Assembly: GCA_022772985.1 (NCBI GenBank)
Contig: JALEZJ010000103.1
Location: 1-50,737, forward strand
Source of the DNA: Erysipelotrichaceae bacterium
GTDB taxonomy: Bacteria; Bacillota_I; Bacilli_A; RF39; UBA660
Direction of reading: 5' to 3'
DNA: 50,737 nt
Below, in pieces: positions 41,667 through 50,737 of the stretch (position 1 is its first letter; every line of letters begins with the position of its first letter). A program made the translations under genes and the position numbers. Under the pieces are notes generated by a model. It saw only the letters and a program-made list of their open reading frames with translations, was not told the DNA's origin and did no database searches.

Positions 41667-42218
41667 TTAGGGTTTAAGGATATAATAAAGGGCTAGTATT
41701 ATCATCATGATACCCCCGCTAATTGTTGCATAGGTTCCAAATTTATCACTTAGTTTATTTCCTAAATGAAGTCCTAAGTAAGTAAATGATGCACTTATTA
41801 TCATAAACATACTAGCTACTGCAAAATAATTGTTGCTAATTGCGGATAATCCGATTCCTGTTGTTAAGCTATCAATACTAACAGAAAGGCCAAATAATAA
41901 GAATCCTAGGAAACTAACTAATATTTTAACTTCTTCTTCTTTTTTACTAGAAATGATTAAATTTATCCCTATGATAGCAAAGATGATTCCTACTAATAAA
42001 TTTATATTTAAGATAAAATACTGATAAATCATATTGCCAAAGGATAGACCTATTAGGGGCATTATAAAATGGAATGTTCCTACAATGATAGATAGGGTTA
42101 TTTTTTGTTTTTTTGTTAAGCCGTAGGTTCCATAAATTAGGGCTAAAGAAAAGGCATCCATAGATAGGCTAATGCCAATTAAAAGGCATGTAAAAAAAAT
42201 ATTCATAATCATATTCAC
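41667..42218 (-). CDS. mntP: Manganese efflux pump MntP/YtaF family
   Basis: Duplicated motifs SLSMDAFS and SVSIDSL, FHFIMPLIG, about 6 TMs. Follows spoIIR as ywlD does in Bacillus. Confidence 0.85.
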   Translation of the reverse strand: MNMIMNIFFTCLLIGISLSMDAFSLALIYGTYGLTKKQKITLSIIVGTFHFIMPLIGLSFGNMIYQYFILNINLLVGIIFAIIGINLIISSKKEEEVKILVSFLGFLLFGLSVSIDSLTTGIGLSAISNNYFAVASMFMIISASFTYLGLHLGNKLSDKFGTYATISGGIMMIILALYYILKP

Positions 42219-42251
42219 CTATTAAATATTATTATGAATATAAAATGTTAT

Positions 42252-42788
42252 TCAAAATATCTTTTCTAACATTTTTGTTACAAAAAATTGATATTCTACA
42301 TCACTTGTATCATTATCATTAGCTTCTAATAAGCATAATGGTGGAAATAAGACACACCACCAGTTGTCTCCTTCACCTTCTCCAATTGTTACTACTAATG
42401 ATTGATAGGCACCGGCTTCATAATGGACTCCTTTATAGTCTTTTTCTGGAAAGTAGTTGTCTCCAAAATGGATTAGGAACTCTTGATTATAGTTATTATT
42501 TTGAAATAATACTTCAATTTCTTGATTTAGTTGTTCTAGTTCGTTATTAATAATAGTTCTTGCTTCTTCTATACTTTCTACATCGATTAATTTTGGAGAG
42601 ATAGTTTTTTCTATGTATTCTTTTACTTTCATTTTCATACTTTGATCTTGGATGGTATTGGAGTTGGCGATGACTCTTACTCTAATGGCGGCTTCTGGAA
42701 TTATAATTTCATCTGTTTCGGCATTGACGTTAATATAGACTAAAAGTGCTACAACTACGGTTATTACGATTAATATGATTTTTTTCAT
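42252..42788 (-). CDS. spoIIR: Stage II sporulation protein R
   Basis: Signal peptide, IRVRVIANSN..QDQ..K, FPEKDY....Y.AG.Y and GEGEGDNWWCVLFPPLC. Confidence 0.95.
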   Translation of the reverse strand: MKKIILIVITVVVALLVYINVNAETDEIIIPEAAIRVRVIANSNTIQDQSMKMKVKEYIEKTISPKLIDVESIEEARTIINNELEQLNQEIEVLFQNNNYNQEFLIHFGDNYFPEKDYKGVHYEAGAYQSLVVTIGEGEGDNWWCVLFPPLCLLEANDNDTSDVEYQFFVTKMLEKIF

Positions 42789-42807
42789 GGTATCACCCTT
42801 TCAATTT

Positions 42808-42837
42808 CATAATGGGTGAATTCTTACGTTTTTATAC
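42808..42837 (-). promoter_or_regulatory. Candidate sigmaF/sigmaG-type promoter of spoIIR
   Basis: GTATA-18 bp-CATTATG, close to the GHATA-N18-CATAMTA forespore consensus. Confidence 0.45.
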
Positions 42838-43587
42838 CAATTTTTTTCTTTTTTGTTGATGATAGACTATTTTTGTTAGTAAATTGGTTGGAATCATTTT
42901 TACTATAGCTTTTAAAAGTCTAATTTTAAAGCCAGGGATAATATAAAATTTGTTCTTTTTTAATTTTTTGATTGTGTATTTTGCTACTTGATCGCTATTA
43001 ATAGATTTTAGGCAAAATTCTACTCCTGCTCTTTTATTGAAATTGGTAGATACTGGTCCTGGGCATAAAATACTTAATTTTACATGAGATTTCTGTTTTC
43101 TTAGTTCTTCTTTTACTCCGGTTGTTAAACTTACTACATAATTTTTGCTGGCATAATAGGTACTCATTAGTGGTCCAGACATGAATCCTGCAATGGAAGC
43201 TACATTTAGAATTTTTCCTTGATCTTTTTTGATCATGTCTTGTAAATATAATTTCATTAAGGTATGAAGTGCTTTTATATTTAAATCAATCATTTGTAAT
43301 TCTTCTTCTAAGGACGTGGTGGAAAAATTTCCAAATAGACCAAATCCGGCATTATTGATTAAAATATCAATATGGGGAAATTTTTCATGTAGCTTTATAC
43401 AATTTTCTTGGTTTGTTAAATCTGTTGGATAAATTTCTACCTTCCCTTTAGGGGATAGTTCTTTTTTTAGTTCGGTTAATTTTTCTTTGTTTCTTGCTAC
43501 TAATATTAAATCGTAGTTTAATTTAGAAAATTCCATTGCTAGGCTTTTTCCAATTCCTGAACTGGCTCCGGTAATTAATACTTTCAT
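42832..43587 (-). CDS. Short-chain dehydrogenase/reductase
   Basis: TGASSGIG, INNAG, NVAS, YYASK and LCPGP. Confidence 0.95.
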   Translation of the reverse strand: MKVLITGASSGIGKSLAMEFSKLNYDLILVARNKEKLTELKKELSPKGKVEIYPTDLTNQENCIKLHEKFPHIDILINNAGFGLFGNFSTTSLEEELQMIDLNIKALHTLMKLYLQDMIKKDQGKILNVASIAGFMSGPLMSTYYASKNYVVSLTTGVKEELRKQKSHVKLSILCPGPVSTNFNKRAGVEFCLKSINSDQVAKYTIKKLKKNKFYIIPGFKIRLLKAIVKMIPTNLLTKIVYHQQKRKKLV

Positions 43588-43601: not shown

Positions 43602-44243
43602 CTAGTAAGTATTATATTTTCTTGATTGTTCAATCGTCTTGATTAAGATTTGTTTCGTTTTTGGTTCAATATATTTTTTTTCTTGTTCCCATTCAATATT
43701 ATAATAAATAAATTCGCTATTTAATTTGCATTCGTAGTCAAAAGGATCAATATGAATCATTCCTGAATAATAATAGTCAATACAATTTGGATGAAATAAG
43801 ATTAAAGTATTTACTCCAAAAGTAGAAAATAGATTCATCTGTTCTATTTTTATATCTTTTGATAATGAAAATAAATTAATATAGATACCGTCGTAATCGT
43901 TGCTTAATTTTTCAAAACTAAATTTATCTCTTTCTTTCTGGTAATTTTGTAATAGATATTTGTATTGTTCTTTGGTGGATAAATAAAATATCTTAGCATT
44001 TTGTTTTAGAGTTATGATGGAACATGGTTGATGAAAAGGATTTTTACTTTTATTTTTATAAAATAGTATATAAGGGTGTTCTAGGATATAATCTACCCAA
44101 CAGTTATAAGTAGGTAAGTTTACATCAAATTCTGTCATCCATAATCCACCACTTGGTTTTATACTACTATTTAATATAGAATCTTGAATTGGAATAAAAG
44201 ATTTTTTTAATATTTCGCTTGTTCCTACGGTTAAATATGTCAT
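43602..44243 (-). CDS. Hypothetical protein, possible ADP-ribosyltransferase-like fold
   Basis: KPSGGLWMT, CWVDY, LKQNAKIF, FEKLSNDYDGI and TLILFHPNCI. Confidence 0.55.
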   Translation of the reverse strand: MTYLTVGTSEILKKSFIPIQDSILNSSIKPSGGLWMTEFDVNLPTYNCWVDYILEHPYILFYKNKSKNPFHQPCSIITLKQNAKIFYLSTKEQYKYLLQNYQKERDKFSFEKLSNDYDGIYINLFSLSKDIKIEQMNLFSTFGVNTLILFHPNCIDYYYSGMIHIDPFDYECKLNSEFIYYNIEWEQEKKYIEPKTKQILIKTIEQSRKYNTY

Positions 44244-44332: not shown

Positions 44333-46717
44333 TTAATAATTTCTTACTTCGTAATCTTTATCTAATTTTTTTAATAGAAAGTCAATTCCTTTGTTTAATT
44401 TATCGAATATCCAAATGCTACAAATAGCAAATACGATATATAAAAGAACGGTATTGAAAGTTATTTGAGATAGATCAAAGAAATCATTTTGGAACATGAC
44501 AATATAGGTAAATAATAATACTAAAAATCCATATAAGGTTCCTCTAAACCAATTAAATGGTCTGCATAGTCGGTATAGATAAATGAATCCTGTGGTACCG
44601 GTCATGATAACAATTAGGGTTGAGGTTAAGTTTGGATCTATTGCGAACTGTTCTCTAAATAAGACGATCATTACCACATTAAATACTACTGTTAAAGCTG
44701 CTGGAACACTTTTTCCAACTACTTTTAGCATGAATTTTCCTTTTACTAAATTATGATTTGGTTCTAGGGCTAAGATAAAAGAGGGAATACTGATGGTACA
44801 GGTGGTAATTAGGCTAAGATGAATTGGTAAATAAAAGTATTCACTTTCCATAAAAATACAGATGATTACTAAGATACAGGTAAAGATAGTTTTGATTAAT
44901 AATAAGGAAGCTGATCTTTCTACATTATTGATGGTTCTTCTTCCTTCTGCGACTACTTCTGGCATAGATGCAAAATTAGAGTCAAGTAATACTAATTGAC
45001 TGACATTTTTGGCGGCGTCACTTCCACTTGCCATAGCAATACTACAGTCTGCTTTTTTTAAGGCTAGAACATCATTGACACCATCTCCTGTCATTGCAAC
45101 TGTATGTCCTTTTCGTTGTAAGCTTTCAATAATTAACTTTTTTTGGCTAGGGGTTACTCGACCAAAGACATCATATTTTTCTAACATTTCATCAATATTA
45201 TCTTCTGTTAATAGGGTGGCGTCCATTCCTTTTACGTCCTCTAAACCTGCACGTTTGGCAATATTACAAACGGTTTTAAAGTTGTCTCCACTGATAATTT
45301 TTACTTTGACACCTTGTTCTTTAAAATACTTCAAAGTATTTGGAGCTTCTTTACGGATTTTATCTTGTATTAATAAAAATCCTAATACTTTTAGATTCGT
45401 TGGTGTCTCAGTTAAAGCCTCTTTACTATAGGCGATTACTAGGATGCGATAATCACTATACTTCTCTACTTTTTCTTGATATTTATTAAAATCATTTTTT
45501 AATACAAATTCTGGTGCTCCTATGTAATAGCTACCTCTTTTATCAAAAGCTACTGCTGAAAATTTACGACTAGAGGAGAACTCTATTTTATTTTCAACAG
45601 ACCAAATTCCTTTATTTGGATAATATGTTTGCAATGCTTCCATAGTTGCATTGGTATTATCAAAGGCATAGCTTATATTGGATAGGACTTCATCTAGTCT
45701 TGTTGCATCAATTCCTTCTTCAGGAATTACTTGTGTTAATTCCATCGTTCCTTCAGTGATGGTCCCGGTTTTATCTAAGCAAATGACATCTACTCTGGCT
45801 AGGGTTTCAATACAGTATAATTGTTGGACTAGAACATGATATTTAGATAATCTTACTACGCTAACAGCCATAACGGAACTTGTTAGTAATAATAATCCTT
45901 CTGGTATCATTCCAATTAAGGCTCCTACGGTATTAAAAACGGATGCTGTAACATCATGATCTGTTACACTCCATTGATTTATAAATAATAAAATTCCAAC
46001 AGGAACAATGATTACAGATAGGACTTTTAATATTTTTTCAAATGAATTCATAATGACAGAATTCACTTTTTTTTCATATTTGGCTTCACTACTGATTTTG
46101 GAAATATAATTATCTTTTCCTATATTTTCTACTTTGGCATAGCAACTGCCACTTACGATAAAACTTCCGGATAAAATGGTATCTCCTACTTTTTTAGGAA
46201 TTGGATCTACTTCACCAGTTAAAAATGATTCATTTACCTCAACACTTCCTTCTAAGATGATGGAATCTGTTACTACTTGGTTTCCCATTTGAAAATGAAG
46301 AACATCATCTAAGACAATCTCTTCTATTCCTAATTTTTCTTCTTTTCCATTTCTAATACAAGCAACTTTTGCTTCGGCTAGAACTGATAATTTATCAATT
46401 GTTTTTTTGGAAATAATCTCTTGAATAATGCTAATTATACTATTACAAATAATTACTCCCATAAAGGTACAATTTTTTAAGGATTCAAAAAATTCTCCTC
46501 CATAAATACCTGCTATAATGATTGCACCGCCTAATATTAGGTTAATAAAATTAAAATAAGTAAAAAAATTACTTTTAATAATTTCTTTTATACTTTTTGT
46601 CGGGGGTTGATCATTATAATTTACTAAGTTATTTTGAATTCTTTCATTTACTTGACTACTATTTAATCCTTCTTTATAATTTGGTTGATATCTTTTTATA
46701 TCATTCATCATTATCAC
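44333..46717 (-). CDS. Cation-transporting P-type ATPase (CtpE-like)
   Basis: LTGE, MIPEGL, DKTGT, ISGD and TGDGVND; multiple TMs. Confidence 0.96.
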   Translation of the reverse strand: MIMMNDIKRYQPNYKEGLNSSQVNERIQNNLVNYNDQPPTKSIKEIIKSNFFTYFNFINLILGGAIIIAGIYGGEFFESLKNCTFMGVIICNSIISIIQEIISKKTIDKLSVLAEAKVACIRNGKEEKLGIEEIVLDDVLHFQMGNQVVTDSIILEGSVEVNESFLTGEVDPIPKKVGDTILSGSFIVSGSCYAKVENIGKDNYISKISSEAKYEKKVNSVIMNSFEKILKVLSVIIVPVGILLFINQWSVTDHDVTASVFNTVGALIGMIPEGLLLLTSSVMAVSVVRLSKYHVLVQQLYCIETLARVDVICLDKTGTITEGTMELTQVIPEEGIDATRLDEVLSNISYAFDNTNATMEALQTYYPNKGIWSVENKIEFSSSRKFSAVAFDKRGSYYIGAPEFVLKNDFNKYQEKVEKYSDYRILVIAYSKEALTETPTNLKVLGFLLIQDKIRKEAPNTLKYFKEQGVKVKIISGDNFKTVCNIAKRAGLEDVKGMDATLLTEDNIDEMLEKYDVFGRVTPSQKKLIIESLQRKGHTVAMTGDGVNDVLALKKADCSIAMASGSDAAKNVSQLVLLDSNFASMPEVVAEGRRTINNVERSASLLLIKTIFTCILVIICIFMESEYFYLPIHLSLITTCTISIPSFILALEPNHNLVKGKFMLKVVGKSVPAALTVVFNVVMIVLFREQFAIDPNLTSTLIVIMTGTTGFIYLYRLCRPFNWFRGTLYGFLVLLFTYIVMFQNDFFDLSQITFNTVLLYIVFAICSIWIFDKLNKGIDFLLKKLDKDYEVRNY

Positions 46718-46875
46718 CTGCTAACTAGCTTTATTTTATCATATTTTGTTTTATATTTACAGTGAATTTTTAGGATTTTGAAATATTCCATATTCTTCTT
46801 AAAAAAAAGCATTGAATCAGTATTTTTCAAAAGAAAAAAGCACTAAAATTTTGTTTCTTATCTACTATAAATATT

Positions 46876-47850
46876 TTAATTGTTAAATAGAATCTTTCTT
46901 TTTATATGTTCTTTCTTGATAATAGGATACATTGTGACAATATTTTTTGTGTTGGGAAAAGTAATTACTTTGACATTATTTGTCTTACAATTGTTAACTT
47001 CTCCTATTATTTCTTCACAATCGATTAAATATTTATCACAAAGGCTAAAATTATAGGGTTCTAAATCTTGAATTTTTTGAACTATTAATTGGTATAGATT
47101 AGATATATCGACTGTTTGAAAAAATCTAGTATGCTCCTTTTTTTGATTATTTGCTTCTAAATGTAACTGAATGTGTTCAATAGCTCTAGTTTCATCATAC
47201 TGGATTAATTGTTTCAAAAAGTAACTGGTTTGAATTTTCTCTTGATCATTTTCAGTTAAAATATTTAATTTGTATTTCAAATATAAATTAAGTTGGTTAA
47301 TATCACTTGCTTTAAATTTTTTTAATTCAGTAAATTCTAATAATTGTTGAAATAAAAGATACGCTTTTTTAAAATTTTCAAGCTTTATTTCAATAAATAT
47401 TCTTTGAAGCAAGGATTGGAATTGATACAAATTTTCAGGCTCTATATCTTTTTTTATAGAAATTTTTTCAAAATATTTTTTAGAGGTTTCTAAATTACCA
47501 AGATATTTTTCTATAAGCCCTAATTCTATTAGAGCGTTGTCATTATATTTACTACCAATTAAAGTTTTAAAATAATATTGGGCTAATGTAATATTACCAT
47601 TTATTTTTTCTAACTGTCCTAGAATAAACATAGCGTCTTTTCGTTTTTTAGTATCGAGTAAATCTTCTAATAGTGTTTTTCCTTCTTCTCTTGTTTTTTC
47701 TTGTCTTACTAATAAATGACCAAGTTCTATTTGTATATTTACACTAGTGGGATACTTTTTTAATAAATTTCTTAAGATAATTTCTCCTTGTTCTAATTGC
47801 CCATTTTTTATGAGCTTTTCAGCTTCATTAAGTTCTTCATAAAAAATCAT
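46876..47850 (-). CDS. TPR-repeat protein with a C-terminal EndoU-like nuclease domain
   Basis: About 5 TPR-like repeats (aa 1-175). The C-terminus reads IEHIQLH...KKEHTRF...IIG...TNNVKVIT...IVTMYP. Confidence 0.75.
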   Translation of the reverse strand: MIFYEELNEAEKLIKNGQLEQGEIILRNLLKKYPTSVNIQIELGHLLVRQEKTREEGKTLLEDLLDTKKRKDAMFILGQLEKINGNITLAQYYFKTLIGSKYNDNALIELGLIEKYLGNLETSKKYFEKISIKKDIEPENLYQFQSLLQRIFIEIKLENFKKAYLLFQQLLEFTELKKFKASDINQLNLYLKYKLNILTENDQEKIQTSYFLKQLIQYDETRAIEHIQLHLEANNQKKEHTRFFQTVDISNLYQLIVQKIQDLEPYNFSLCDKYLIDCEEIIGEVNNCKTNNVKVITFPNTKNIVTMYPIIKKEHIKRKILFNN

Positions 47851-47876
47851 ATTCCTCTCACACCTTTTCTTGGACT

Positions 47877-48620
47877 TTAATCTTTTTTCATAATAAAAAC
47901 AAATCTATTCCTATTTGAATAATCTTTTTCTATTTTTACTTCTATATTTTTTAAATATTGATAGGCTAAGTTTTTAACATCCTCTCCTTGTTTTTCTCCT
48001 ATTTCAAATGCTATTAAAAATTTATTTTCTAAGTAAAAATTTGCTTGATTTAATATTTTTTTGTAAAAGTATAGGCCATTTTCTTCTGCGTATAGAGCTA
48101 GATGAGGTTCATTATCTTTTACTACCTCTTCTATTTCTTCATCGTACCTAATATAAGGAGGATTACTAATGATGATATCAAATTTGCCTGTTACTTTAGA
48201 AAAAACATCACTTTGATATAGTGTTACTTCTACTTGATTATTATTTAGATTTTTTTTTGCTACTTTTAGGGCTTGATTGGAAATATCAATTCCTGTTATT
48301 TGGCTGTTTAATTCTTTTTTTAAAGTAATTGCAATACAGCCACTACCGGTACCAATATCTAATATTTTTAAATTAGATATTTTATCTTTTGGAAATAATT
48401 TTTGAATATACATGATGGTTTTTTCTACTAATAGTTCTGTTTCAAATCTAGGTATTAAAACATTTTTATTTACTTCGATGATATTTCCATAAAAATCGAC
48501 GTTTCCCACAATATACTGTGGAGAAATCCCTTTTTTTAGAAGTTTTATTCCTTCTTCTTGTTTTTCGGTTGGTAAATATTTTTTTAAATATTCTACATCT
48601 TTTTTTCTCATAAATACCAC
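47877..48620 (-). CDS. prmC: Release factor glutamine methyltransferase
   Basis: PQYIVG, VLIPRFETE, LDIGTGSGCIA, ISNPPY and EPHLAL; follows prfA. Confidence 0.96.
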   Translation of the reverse strand: MVFMRKKDVEYLKKYLPTEKQEEGIKLLKKGISPQYIVGNVDFYGNIIEVNKNVLIPRFETELLVEKTIMYIQKLFPKDKISNLKILDIGTGSGCIAITLKKELNSQITGIDISNQALKVAKKNLNNNQVEVTLYQSDVFSKVTGKFDIIISNPPYIRYDEEIEEVVKDNEPHLALYAEENGLYFYKKILNQANFYLENKFLIAFEIGEKQGEDVKNLAYQYLKNIEVKIEKDYSNRNRFVFIMKKD

Positions 48621-48663
48621 TCTATTTCTAAATTATTAGGAAAAGATATTACATAAGGCTATT

Positions 48664-49734
48664 TTATGCAATATCTTTGTCATTTCCTTCTAATTTTCTT
48701 TTTTGATCTTCATTCATTAAGGCTTCTATTACGACTCCTAAATCTCCATCCATGATTCTATCTAGATTTATAGAAGTAAAACCAATTCGATGATCAGTAA
48801 GTCTATTTTGTGGATAGTTGTAAGTTCTTATTTTTTCACTTCTATCTCCTGTTCCAATTTTACTTCGGCGTTCTTTTCCTTCTGCTTCTTCTTTTTCTCT
48901 TAGTTTTAAATCATATAATCTAGTTTTTAAAATTTTAATAGCCATTTCTTTATTTTTGATTTGACTTCTTTCTACTTGAGAATATACAATAATTCCAGTT
49001 GGAATGTGGGTTAGACGAACGGCACTATCAGTGGTATTGACTCCTTGTCCTCCACACCCACTGCTTCTTGTAATATCAACACGTACTTCATTCATATCTA
49101 GTTCAAAGTCTAATTCTTCTGCTTCTGGCATTACTAGTACAGTTGCTGTTGAAGTGTGAACTCTACCTTGACTTTCTGTTGCAGGAACTCTCTGTACTCG
49201 GTGAGCACCACTTTCATATTTTAGTTTAGAATAGACATTTTCTCCTTTTACCATAAACTCAATATTGGTAAATCCACCAGCTGATCCTTCAATGCTGTTA
49301 GTTACATCTATTTTCCAACCTTCACGACTTGCATATTTCATATACATATCAAATAAATCTCCTGCAAAGATATTTGCTTCGTCTCCACCTGCTGCTCCTT
49401 TAATTTCTACTACAACATTTTTTTCATCATTTGGATCATGTGGTAATAGTAAAATCTCTAGTTGACTTTCTAATTTGCTCTTTTCTTCTTCTAGGGATAC
49501 TAGTTCTTCTTTGGCAAAAGCTCCTAGTTCACTATCTTTTGTAAGTTCTTTATCTTCTTCTATATTTTTTAATACTTGTTTATATTTATTATATAGTTCT
49601 ACTGTTTCTGATAGTCTCGTTTGTTCTTTCGATAATTCTGTCATTTTTTTTATATCTTGAATTATATCAGGACTAGATAATTGTTCTGTTATCTCTTGAT
49701 ATCTTTTTACGATGGCTTCTAATCTGTCTATCAT
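48664..49734 (-). CDS. prfA: Peptide chain release factor 1
   Basis: ESGAHRVQRVPATE (PxT motif), GGQ and DRSEKIRTYNYPQNR. Confidence 0.99.
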   Translation of the reverse strand: MIDRLEAIVKRYQEITEQLSSPDIIQDIKKMTELSKEQTRLSETVELYNKYKQVLKNIEEDKELTKDSELGAFAKEELVSLEEEKSKLESQLEILLLPHDPNDEKNVVVEIKGAAGGDEANIFAGDLFDMYMKYASREGWKIDVTNSIEGSAGGFTNIEFMVKGENVYSKLKYESGAHRVQRVPATESQGRVHTSTATVLVMPEAEELDFELDMNEVRVDITRSSGCGGQGVNTTDSAVRLTHIPTGIIVYSQVERSQIKNKEMAIKILKTRLYDLKLREKEEAEGKERRSKIGTGDRSEKIRTYNYPQNRLTDHRIGFTSINLDRIMDGDLGVVIEALMNEDQKRKLEGNDKDIA

Positions 49735-49825
49735 ATCAATCGCTCCTTTTCTTTTTATTATTCTATCATATTATAAAGAAGAAGGCAAAAAATATTTAGA
49801 ATATTTTTTAGGTATTCTAAATATT

Positions 49826-50518
49826 TTATTTTCGTTTTCTTGCTTTTATAAAAATGCTGTTATCTCCAAGGATGGTAGTGTTATTTATACTTAACTCTTT
49901 CATATCTTTTGAAAAATAACAACTTCCAACTCCAATTATTTTAGAAAAATCATATTTTGTCACGACATCATAAGAAATAATTCCTTCTGTTAAAGCTAAT
50001 CTAAACATTTTTAAGTCATGTCTTTTCCAGGCGTTTAAAGATTTTTGGCCTTTTTCTTTGTATGATTCTAAAGCTTGTTCTACCATGGTAGACGAACATT
50101 TGGGCCAAAGATTTTCAAATGGCATACAATGAATAATTCCTTTGCCAATAAATTGTTGTGCTATCTCATTATAATTTGTTGCATCTAGTTCTCCTAATAA
50201 ACTAGTAAATAAAAGAATACTATTTAAATAAGTACATTGGATTTTTTCTTTTATGTATTCACAGTCATCTCCAGTACTAGAAGTAATATATTGATTCATT
50301 AAAGTATTTCCTTCTCTTATATAGCCTGTTTTTAATATGGATTTAAAACTAGCTAATCCTTCTTGAGTTGATATTTGGTAGTTATTTATGTCTTCTCTAT
50401 TTATTAGTTCGTCCCTTAATTCTTTTAATTCATCTCTTCTTTTTACTTTTAATTTTCCTACTAATAAAGTATTTTCTGTATCTTGTGTTATAATCATATC
50501 GCGTTTTTGTTGTTCCAT
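49826..50518 (-). CDS. Hypothetical protein (about 230 aa)
   Basis: ATG at 50518 follows a GGGG purine run. The ORF-track TTG at 50578 coincides with a promoter -35. Confidence 0.75.
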   Translation of the reverse strand: MEQQKRDMIITQDTENTLLVGKLKVKRRDELKELRDELINREDINNYQISTQEGLASFKSILKTGYIREGNTLMNQYITSSTGDDCEYIKEKIQCTYLNSILLFTSLLGELDATNYNEIAQQFIGKGIIHCMPFENLWPKCSSTMVEQALESYKEKGQKSLNAWKRHDLKMFRLALTEGIISYDVVTKYDFSKIIGVGSCYFSKDMKELSINNTTILGDNSIFIKARKRK

Positions 50519-50549
50519 CACACTATTTCCCCCAATCAAAACGTTGTTT

Positions 50550-50578
50550 ATTTTAGCATATCTTTTTATTTCTGTCAA
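50550..50578 (-). promoter_or_regulatory. sigmaA promoter of the hypothetical gene
   Basis: TTGACA-17 bp-TAAAAT with an extended TG. Confidence 0.75.
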
Positions 50579-50737
50579 CTGTTAGTTATTTTTTGCCAGG
50601 ATAAATTCATAAACGTGGAAATAATAGATATTACTTATATAGTGTATTTATTATTTTTTCTATTTCATACTCAAAATCCATACTAATATTGAATCGAATT
50701 GAATTCATGCTTAACTTAGTTTGATTTTTGAATATTT

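Follow-up and report, generated by a model that had tools for sequence, protein, structure and literature searches.

The gene described here occupies positions 46876..47850 of the minus strand in a window of 50,737 nucleotides (nt), i.e., the whole stretch of DNA that was analysed, from contig JALEZJ010000103.1 of an Erysipelotrichaceae bacterium, and it encodes, from an ATG start and with the stop codon included in these coordinates, a protein of 324 amino acids (aa) in which an array of tetratricopeptide repeats (TPR) precedes a C-terminal domain (hereafter the C-domain). The structural model supports the assignment of the C-domain to the BECR (short for Barnase-EndoU-ColicinE5/D-RelE) / ribonuclease (RNase) A-like fold, in a form that resembles RNase toxins, and the best explanation of its sequence is a new family, nearest to the Ntox50 toxins YxiD-CT and MafB2-CT, with a different active-site make-up. 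The protein as a whole may be a self-restrained cytoplasmic RNase, kept in check or directed to its target by the TPRs of the same chain, with a role in conflict or stress, a reading to which a probability of about 0.5 is given. What is new here is a BECR RNase-like family in a previously unreported setting, which is cytoplasmic, TPR-fused and devoid of immunity genes, and for which we infer both the function and any role in defence.

The gene is real rather than a chance frame, given that another protein is 98% identical to the 324-aa product (E 1.3e-197), that the family comprises 237 cluster representatives, and that 66 of the 201 genomes examined in the order have an intact homologue. The exhaustive search that provided these relatives recovered 649 cluster representatives at E<=1e-3, the 237 just mentioned at E<=1e-10, and 47 at E<=1e-30.

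Fold and candidate active site of the C-domain

The C-domain was modelled with AlphaFold2 (AF2) as aa 185-324, using an alignment of 127 sequences, and the resulting model reached a predicted local distance difference test score (pLDDT) of 92.0 and a predicted template modelling score (pTM) of 0.83. Three helices are followed in this model by a core helix (220-231), a strand (241-243), a second core helix (249-260) and five further strands (272-277, 283-285, 288-290, 292-297 and 304-310), forming an alpha+beta domain of roughly 95 aa in which an N-terminal helix is packed on a four- to five-stranded antiparallel sheet, the arrangement that defines the BECR / RNase A-like fold. The core (aa 220-312), delimited by the model, the structure search and weak matches to Ntox50, is encoded at 46915..47193 (minus strand), and the two helices that connect it to the TPR array (aa 195-219, with AF2 helices at 200-208 and 210-216) at 47194..47268 (minus strand).

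A VIA-align structure search, which is independent of Foldseek, was performed against 48,161 representative PDB chains and listed 50 entries. The first two ranks, both aligned over the whole core, are the Ntox50 chains 9V8I_B, the C-terminal toxin of YxiD (Z 7.0, root-mean-square deviation 2.8 over 83 residues), and 8HHJ_B, MafB2-CT (Z 6.3), and they are followed by three CdiA-CT toxins, namely 8EY4_A (Z 5.7), 5E3E_B (Z 5.2) and 6CP9_A (Z 5.2). Lower ranks include BrnT, ParE, colicin D, RNase A homologues, RelE, YoeB, YafQ and MqsR, so named that ranks 1-17 without exception, and 37 of the 50 entries listed, are RNase, toxin-antitoxin or RNase A-type proteins by title. The matched residue numbers (438-534, 325-423 and 168-281) fall within the toxin chains, and it was therefore the toxins that were matched, not the immunity chains. 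Structures of EndoU proteins appear further down, with 5HKQ at Z 3.7 and the viral Nsp15 and Nsp11 at Z 2.9.

Sequence comparisons give weak signals in the same direction. When 38 C-domains were scanned against Pfam, Ntox50 was matched in 13 of them (best E 1.5e-4) and EndoU_bacteria in three (best E 0.0074), all below threshold, and every other family appeared once or twice only; the neighbours found with a protein language model include the EndoU_bacteria (0.90) and RNAse_A_bac (0.88) clusters. The C-domain is matched at threshold by no model from Pfam, NCBIfam, PADLOC or PHROGs, its sequence profile matched none of the PDB chains, and Foldseek against the BFVD viral models returned nothing meaningful. 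As no single Z is high, the assignment of the fold rests on the coherence of the list of structural matches together with two independent weak signals.

The conservation of individual residues was calculated over 127 sequences, unless another set is named. The connecting helices carry Y210 (97%), Q214 (92%) and Y218 (94%), and the first core helix carries H226 (91%) and H230 (84%), whose H226-x3-H230 spacing (47161..47175, minus strand) makes up a candidate general base. In the loop ahead of strand 1, the K237-x-x-H240 pair (66% and 73%, respectively; 47131..47142, minus strand) contains candidate transition-state or acid residues, and further along are found D272 (83%), Y274 (98%), T297 (93%) and position 300 (N in 77%, H in 6%). 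The last strand contributes I304 (99%), T306 (T in 73%, S in a further 14%), Y308 (87%) and P309 (98%), with the T306-M-Y308-P309 segment at 46924..46935 (minus strand). In a closer set of 38 sequences (A3), the conservation of H226, H230, K237 and H240 reaches at least 90% in each case, as does that of H226 and H230 in set A4. The motifs quoted in the sequence-only reading are all present in the translation, i.e., H226-I-Q-L-H230, K237-K-E-H240-T-R-F, I281-I-G283, T290, V293-K-V295 and I304-V-T-M-Y-P309.

The BECR fold has been characterised by a conserved serine or threonine in the C-terminal strand and a histidine or basic residue from the N-terminal helix, in a survey by Zhang et al. that lists Ntox50 as "H, S, K, T, H, K, HxVP" (PMC3482391), and here these features are provided by T306 and by H226/H230. 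YxiD-CT is described as an Ntox50 tRNase with an active site formed by H447, H521 and H528 together with K446 and K524, and with the HxVP motif (PMC12700104), and H335, H402 and H409 are required in MafB2-CT. CdiA-CT(Ykris) uses H175 as its base and has T276/Y278 in place of the His119 of RNase A (PMC9970974). The equivalent positions were placed from the first and last aligned residues of the structural matches, and not by a residue-by-residue superposition, which would put H230 at about H447 of YxiD and H335 of MafB2; N300 at about H521 and H402 of the same proteins; K302 at about K524 of YxiD; T306 at about H528 of YxiD, H409 of MafB2 and T276 of CdiA-CT(Ykris); and Y308 at about Y278 of the latter.

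TPR array, distribution and genomic setting

The TPR array (aa 1-194) is encoded at 47269..47850 (minus strand). Pfam returned only sub-threshold TPR matches in the 324-aa protein (TPR_14 at aa 13-45, with 22.6 bits for a cut-off of 23.5, and TPR_2 at aa 106-129), and an NCBIfam scan gave only weak matches of the TPR type. The profile of 13 family sequences, on the other hand, matched designed consensus TPR proteins among the PDB chains at E 7.9e-29, in addition to many natural TPR proteins, and the full-length AF2 model (pLDDT 91.8, pTM 0.88) has 12 helices in aa 2-194, which form six hairpins. Profile and model thus agree on tandem helix-turn-helix units of 34 aa, and the approximately five TPR-like repeats counted by eye in the sequence were a fair estimate. 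The TPR array and the C-domain are predicted to form one rigid body, given the pLDDT and pTM of the full-length model. The number of TPR units differs among the homologues, and two of these (P0010 and P0012) contain runs of near-identical 34-aa units, which therefore indicate a recent duplication of units. The mean pairwise identity over 60 full-length relatives is 26% in the TPR part and 34% in the core, so that the TPR part diverges faster.

The C-domain was located in 152 of 158 proteins, lying no more than 45 aa from the C-terminus in 149 of the 152, and it is present in two copies in two proteins. Fewer than 60 residues precede the C-domain in seven of the 152 proteins, and P0172 (158 aa) is also devoid of TPRs; these short forms may be either whole genes or fragments. 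A search with the profile of the domain alone recovered 20 longer proteins, all of which have either TPR families of Pfam or no Pfam family, and one short protein, the 158-aa P0172. Five other relatives were scanned with PADLOC, and two of these matched a generic "TPR" model only. The C-domain is, then, found almost only behind TPR arrays. No LXG, WXG, RHS, MafB_N or other trafficking domain, and no signal peptide, was found by Pfam in the 324-aa protein or in the 20 longer matches, and the absence of a signal peptide had been anticipated from the sequence.

Two side observations concern unusual members of the family. A pair of RNase-like domains per chain is seen in a 513-aa open reading frame (ORF) at locus L051 (G155:C6, 5890-8278) and in P0026 and P0102. 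The protein P0151 (161 aa) has a helix-turn-helix-like N-terminus in the place of the TPRs, and the positions of its helix histidines are occupied by Y and F, as judged by eye, which may reflect a degenerate or re-purposed copy.

The C-domain is encoded in 66 of the 201 genomes of the order (65 of the 200 that are at least 90% complete), representing 36 of 98 genera, and all of these genomes, of 0.6-1.6 Mb, belong to a single family. In a sample of the phylum, 383 genomes from outside this family (f1) contained no copy, and three of 16 sampled genomes within it had one, with genome G000 left out of the count. Tandem copies of the gene are found in four genomes (G155, G138, G172 and G027).

For the analysis of context, ORFs were called in 25 homologous loci and 145 flanking proteins were scanned against Pfam. 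The gene is usually co-directional with the preceding gene, from which it is separated by anything from an overlap to about 140 nt, and no conserved flanking gene or immunity gene was found across the 25 loci. The neighbours vary from locus to locus, and include RNase R/SmpB, ScpA/ScpB, NusA/IF2, IleRS, TruB/RelA, DnaJ, Era-RecO with GlyRS, RNase III with RlmN-PP2C-PknB, FtsW with SpoU-RimM-TrmD, PGK, Smr, ThrRS with MraZ, Fmt with PheRS, ValRS, and capsule genes. Only one of these 25 neighbourhoods is clearly mobile or defence-like, that of L040 (G056:C18, 3578-8291), where the gene is preceded upstream by a phage-type integrase and followed downstream by a protein of 783 aa with AbiEi_4 and TPR matches; XRE regulators or AAA/IstB-like ATPases occur near a few of the other copies. 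The gene is accessory, occupies variable chromosomal sites, diverges fast and is occasionally present in tandem copies.

In the window, the gene follows prmC, which encodes a 247-aa methyltransferase with a PrmC-type MTS domain and is itself preceded by a gene for a release factor that has PCRF and RF-1 domains. As the sequence-only reading had described, 26 nt separate the prmC stop from the start of the gene, with no hairpin between them: the stop codon is at 47877-47879 and the ATG at 47850-47848, and a consensus scan found no terminator-like site in the spacer (47851..47876, minus strand), which carries a GAGAGGA ribosome-binding site a few bases 5' of the start. On its 3' side, a spacer of 158 nt (46718..46875) leads to a P-type ATPase gene on the same strand. 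The ORF search found no credible immunity gene in this spacer, where a 38-aa frame with a TTG start, which runs into the start of the ATPase gene, is the sole ORF on the same strand to reach 20 aa, in agreement with the claim that no small immunity ORF follows. As none was found at the 25 homologous loci either, the missing immunity gene is therefore a property of the whole family. Rfam gave no match in 46000-50737 or in the 158-nt spacer, and no notable direct or inverted repeats were found to flank the gene, whose GC content is about 23%, against 25-35% for its neighbours, a difference that is not decisive.

A tie to the machinery of peptide release, through co-expression with prfA and prmC, had also been proposed, and this was rejected. 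The adjacency was seen in the genome of the window only, given that prmC lies beside the family gene at none of the 25 homologous loci, and that two genomes of the same genus (G191 and G100, 92-93% complete) preserve the prfA-prmC-ATPase-SDR-SpoIIR-MntP order without the family gene, prmC being separated from the ATPase gene by 125 and 57 nt, respectively. Its position next to prfA-prmC is thus incidental, and the gene is an indel of about 1.1 kb in a conserved synteny.

A number of further observations were made in and around the window. In three DNA-type contig sets, the gene is present at low depth together with an allelic variant. In run X2, one contig joins position 46878 to 47918 and skips 1039 nt, which is nearly exactly the gene plus the 3' end of prmC; the contig matches at 90% likeness, with only 21 letters on the shorter side of the junction, and may represent either a relative without the gene or an artefact. 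The assembly to which the window belongs (1.75 Mb in 210 contigs, with an estimated contamination of 6.4%) has one copy of the C-domain. Directly upstream of prfA, a 250-aa ORF (49826-50578, minus strand) has no match in Pfam, PADLOC or PHROGs, nor any relative among the context proteins compared, and a 213-aa ORF between the P-type ATPase and short-chain dehydrogenase/reductase (SDR) genes (43602-44243, minus strand) likewise has no match in these three collections; its place is taken by a 209-aa ORF in G100 and by none in G191. Sporulation genes (SpoIIR, SpoVA, CotE and Spo0A) are found in these genomes of 0.6-1.7 Mb, at 41667-43587 of the window and at loci L002, L005, L039 and L049.

Proposed mechanism and alternative explanations

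In the proposed mechanism, the C-domain would cleave RNA without the need for a metal. On the first core helix, H230 together with H226 would serve as the base, the transition state may be stabilised by K237, H240 and K302, and the last strand would supply T306 and Y308 instead of a second histidine, just as CdiA-CT(Ykris) uses T276 and Y278. The TPR array would restrain the RNase within the same chain, or else aim it at its target, since the protein lacks both a secretion signal and an immunity gene, and the domain hardly ever occurs without TPRs; a protein or peptide ligand bound to the array might then change the restrained or aimed state. A role in conflict, such as in defence or in growth arrest triggered by stress, fits better than a core role, because the gene is accessory, diverges rapidly, is sometimes found in tandem and occupies variable sites.

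A more specific version of this mechanism can be put forward only tentatively. In this version, the proteins would be one-protein immune sensors that dispense with an NTPase, in which a rapidly evolving TPR array, expanding through the duplication of its units, might serve both as an immunity clamp and as the receptor of a phage or foreign protein or peptide. The binding of this ligand would free the RNase, and translation would be shut down. The gating by TPRs, the phage-protein ligand and the part in abortive infection that the sequence-only reading had suggested are plausible. Single cassettes might travel and lodge in the housekeeping operons of reduced-genome gut Bacilli, where they would be constitutively expressed without a promoter of their own.

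Several results weigh against a self-restrained conflict RNase. The structure scores are middling, given that a best Z of 7-8 is, according to the tool, typical of models without a clear match. The combination of an AlphaFold model with Foldseek, which the sequence-only reading had recommended, gave a confident model (pLDDT 92.0) but nothing at E<=0.001 against PDB, the top weak rows being toxin chains (5E3E_B, 9V8I_B and 8HHJ_B). Using hhalign, the profile of the C-domain gave a probability of 5.5% (E 0.0069) against five genuine Ntox50 domains taken from genomes. The candidate catalytic residues vary over the 127 sequences (H230 84%, H240 73% and K237 66%), and two of the three histidines that are required in YxiD and MafB2 are replaced by N300 and T306. 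As to the role in defence, no model of PADLOC-DB v2 or PHROGs matched the 324-aa protein, tblastn of the C-domain found no match in phage and plasmid collections, a scan of viral contigs found no relative, and most of the loci are plain housekeeping neighbourhoods rather than defence islands. A lineage-restricted gene located inside housekeeping operons would also fit an RNA-processing enzyme specific to this lineage.

This last alternative, an enzyme of RNA processing or turnover that makes specific, non-lethal cuts in tRNA, rRNA or mRNA while its TPRs dock on the ribosome or on an RNA-handling partner, would be benign and would require no immunity, and we regard it as rather unlikely. It agrees with the absence of an immunity gene, the confinement to one bacterial family and the lack of a match to any defence model, as well as with the co-directional position of the gene at 0-140 nt from housekeeping genes, many of which act in RNA metabolism or translation (RNase R/SmpB, NusA/IF2, TruB, RNase III, RlmN, TrmD/RimM, aminoacyl-tRNA synthetases, Fmt and prfA/prmC). 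An enrichment of such neighbours was considered and rejected, however, given that a rough hand count found one of them immediately beside the gene at about 11 of 26 loci, where about seven would be expected in genomes of around 1 Mb, which is not clearly above expectation, and the relatives are not independent. Moreover, about two thirds of the order's genomes with a completeness of at least 90% do not have the gene, including the two congeners with the same synteny, and its variable site, tandem paralogues and changing number of TPRs are atypical of a core enzyme.

The nearest relatives of solved structure depend on three histidines, and the replacement of two of these (by N300 and T306) may be read in another way, as the mark of a catalytically dead BECR-like domain whose task is to bind RNA, the ribosome or a protein, in which case the family would consist of a TPR scaffold with a toxin-derived adaptor. 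The top-conserved positions are indeed aromatic or structural (Y210, Y218, Y274, I304 and P309), and there are BECR proteins of the ParE type which are not nucleases. The conservation of the polar residues makes a dead domain improbable, however, considering that H226 and H230 are kept in at least 90% of both A3 and A4, and K237 and H240 in at least 90% of A3, and that polar residues this conserved on a toxin fold usually mark catalysis; the T-x-Y last strand also matches the working site of CdiA-CT(Ykris), an active RNase. An exported interbacterial polymorphic toxin, which would leave the cell by a route not yet recognised and have its immunity gene elsewhere, is highly improbable. Its appeal lies in the nearest structural neighbours, all of which are secreted competition toxins of the LXG, MafB and CdiA types, but the 324-aa protein and the 20 longer matches show TPRs only by Pfam, with no signal peptide, LXG, WXG, RHS or MafB_N, no immunity gene is adjacent at any of the 25 loci, and no genes of a secretion system recur nearby in the same set. 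The self-restrained cytoplasmic RNase is retained as the preferred reading.

If this reading is correct, the protein would represent a minimal design of sensor and effector without an ATPase, and genes of this sort would prove to be retained and shuffled by gut Bacilli with reduced genomes. Should the family consist of RNA-processing enzymes instead, a toxin fold would have been domesticated for housekeeping. An unnamed domain, of which no piece reaches a Pfam cut-off and which has at least 237 cluster representatives at E<=1e-10, gains in this way a fold and a set of testable residues.

Comparison with known toxin families and systems

The family with the greatest likeness to the C-domain is Ntox50 (PF15542), represented by YxiD-CT of B. 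subtilis 6633 (9V8I) and MafB2-CT of N. meningitidis B16B6 (8HHJ), which, besides taking the first two ranks of the structure search, is the sole Pfam family to recur among the weak matches. The features in common appear to be the helix histidine, a lysine ahead of the last strand, and a last strand that ends in x-x-P. The HxVP motif and the C-terminal pair of histidines (H521/H528 in YxiD and H402/H409 in MafB2) are nevertheless absent here, where T306-M-Y308-P309 and N300 are found instead, and the conserved H226, K237, H240, D272 and Y274 are additional to what is seen in Ntox50. Membership of Ntox50 was rejected, since the defining motif is absent, the 324-aa protein scores below the cut-off of the profile (8.9 against 22.2 bits, E 3.5) and hhalign gave only 5.5%. 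The Ntox50 toxins are fused to LXG or MafB_N, whereas this C-domain is fused to TPRs in a cytoplasmic protein without an immunity gene. A search of genome G000 with PF15542 returned no match at E<=1e-5. Another genome of the same family (G007) encodes a genuine Ntox50 domain (L070, G007:C1:80373-80642), which ends a 518-aa frame and exceeds the cut-off with 82.5 bits, in addition to two TPR-fused copies, and classical Ntox50 thus coexists with the TPR-fused family in this lineage.

A second comparison is with the CdiA-CT of Yersinia kristensenii (5E3E), an RNase A-like toxin (PF18431) that aligns with 16% identity over 90 residues (Z 5.2) and whose H175 plus T276/Y278 pattern (PMC9970974) corresponds to H226/H230 plus T306/Y308 of the C-domain. 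That toxin is delivered by contact-dependent inhibition, has the CdiI immunity protein and lacks a TPR array, and no sequence-profile match between it and the C-domain was seen.

The EndoU toxins (PF14436; CdiA-CT STEC_O31, 5HKQ) and the viral EndoU proteins (Nsp15 and Nsp11) have in common with the C-domain the fold superclass, the histidines and a T/S-x-Y strand. Their arrangement of histidines is, we take it, unlike that found here, where both histidines sit one helical turn apart on a single helix. The EndoU_bacteria profile did not match the 324-aa protein at E<=10, and assignment to the EndoU family is not supported, given Z values of 2.9-3.7, against 7.0 and 6.3 for the Ntox50-type structures, and sub-threshold Pfam matches in three rather than 13 of the 38 C-domains; Z values this weak leave room for a relationship. 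The description of the domain as an EndoU-like RNase, made from the sequence, is right at the level of the fold class, where the leading 17 structural matches are RNase toxins, and of the theme of histidines plus T-x-Y, and is not supported at the level of the family.

TPRs and BECR RNases are known as partners in the TPR-Imm1-4 families, which are immunity proteins that neutralise BECR toxins in the polymorphic toxin systems of Gram-positive bacteria (PMC9424270). In those systems the TPRs and the RNase belong to different proteins and the toxin leaves the cell, whereas in the present family they form one chain, with the TPRs first. Single-gene toxin-antitoxin modules also exist, in which BECR toxins are fused to antitoxins with the YefM, HigA, BrnA and ParD folds (PMC11980606). 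These fused proteins resemble the present one in that a single polypeptide contains the toxin and a restraining domain, with no separate antitoxin gene, and differ from it in that they use known antitoxin folds or a toxSAS toxin, the term "TPR" being absent from the main text of PMC11980606. No family of TPR-BECR fusions was described in the literature searched, though the supplements of PMC3482391, PMC9424270 and PMC11980606 may list such architectures.

BECR RNases are known either as exported competition toxins with separate immunity proteins, or as the toxins of toxin-antitoxin systems, in which the antitoxin is separate or fused. If the proposed mechanism is true, a TPR clamp located in the same chain would be a new way to keep a BECR RNase safe, and this clamp could double as a sensor. 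The TPR sensors of the Avs proteins offer an analogy for such an array, and in CapRel-SJ46 the domain that restrains the toxin also senses a phage protein.

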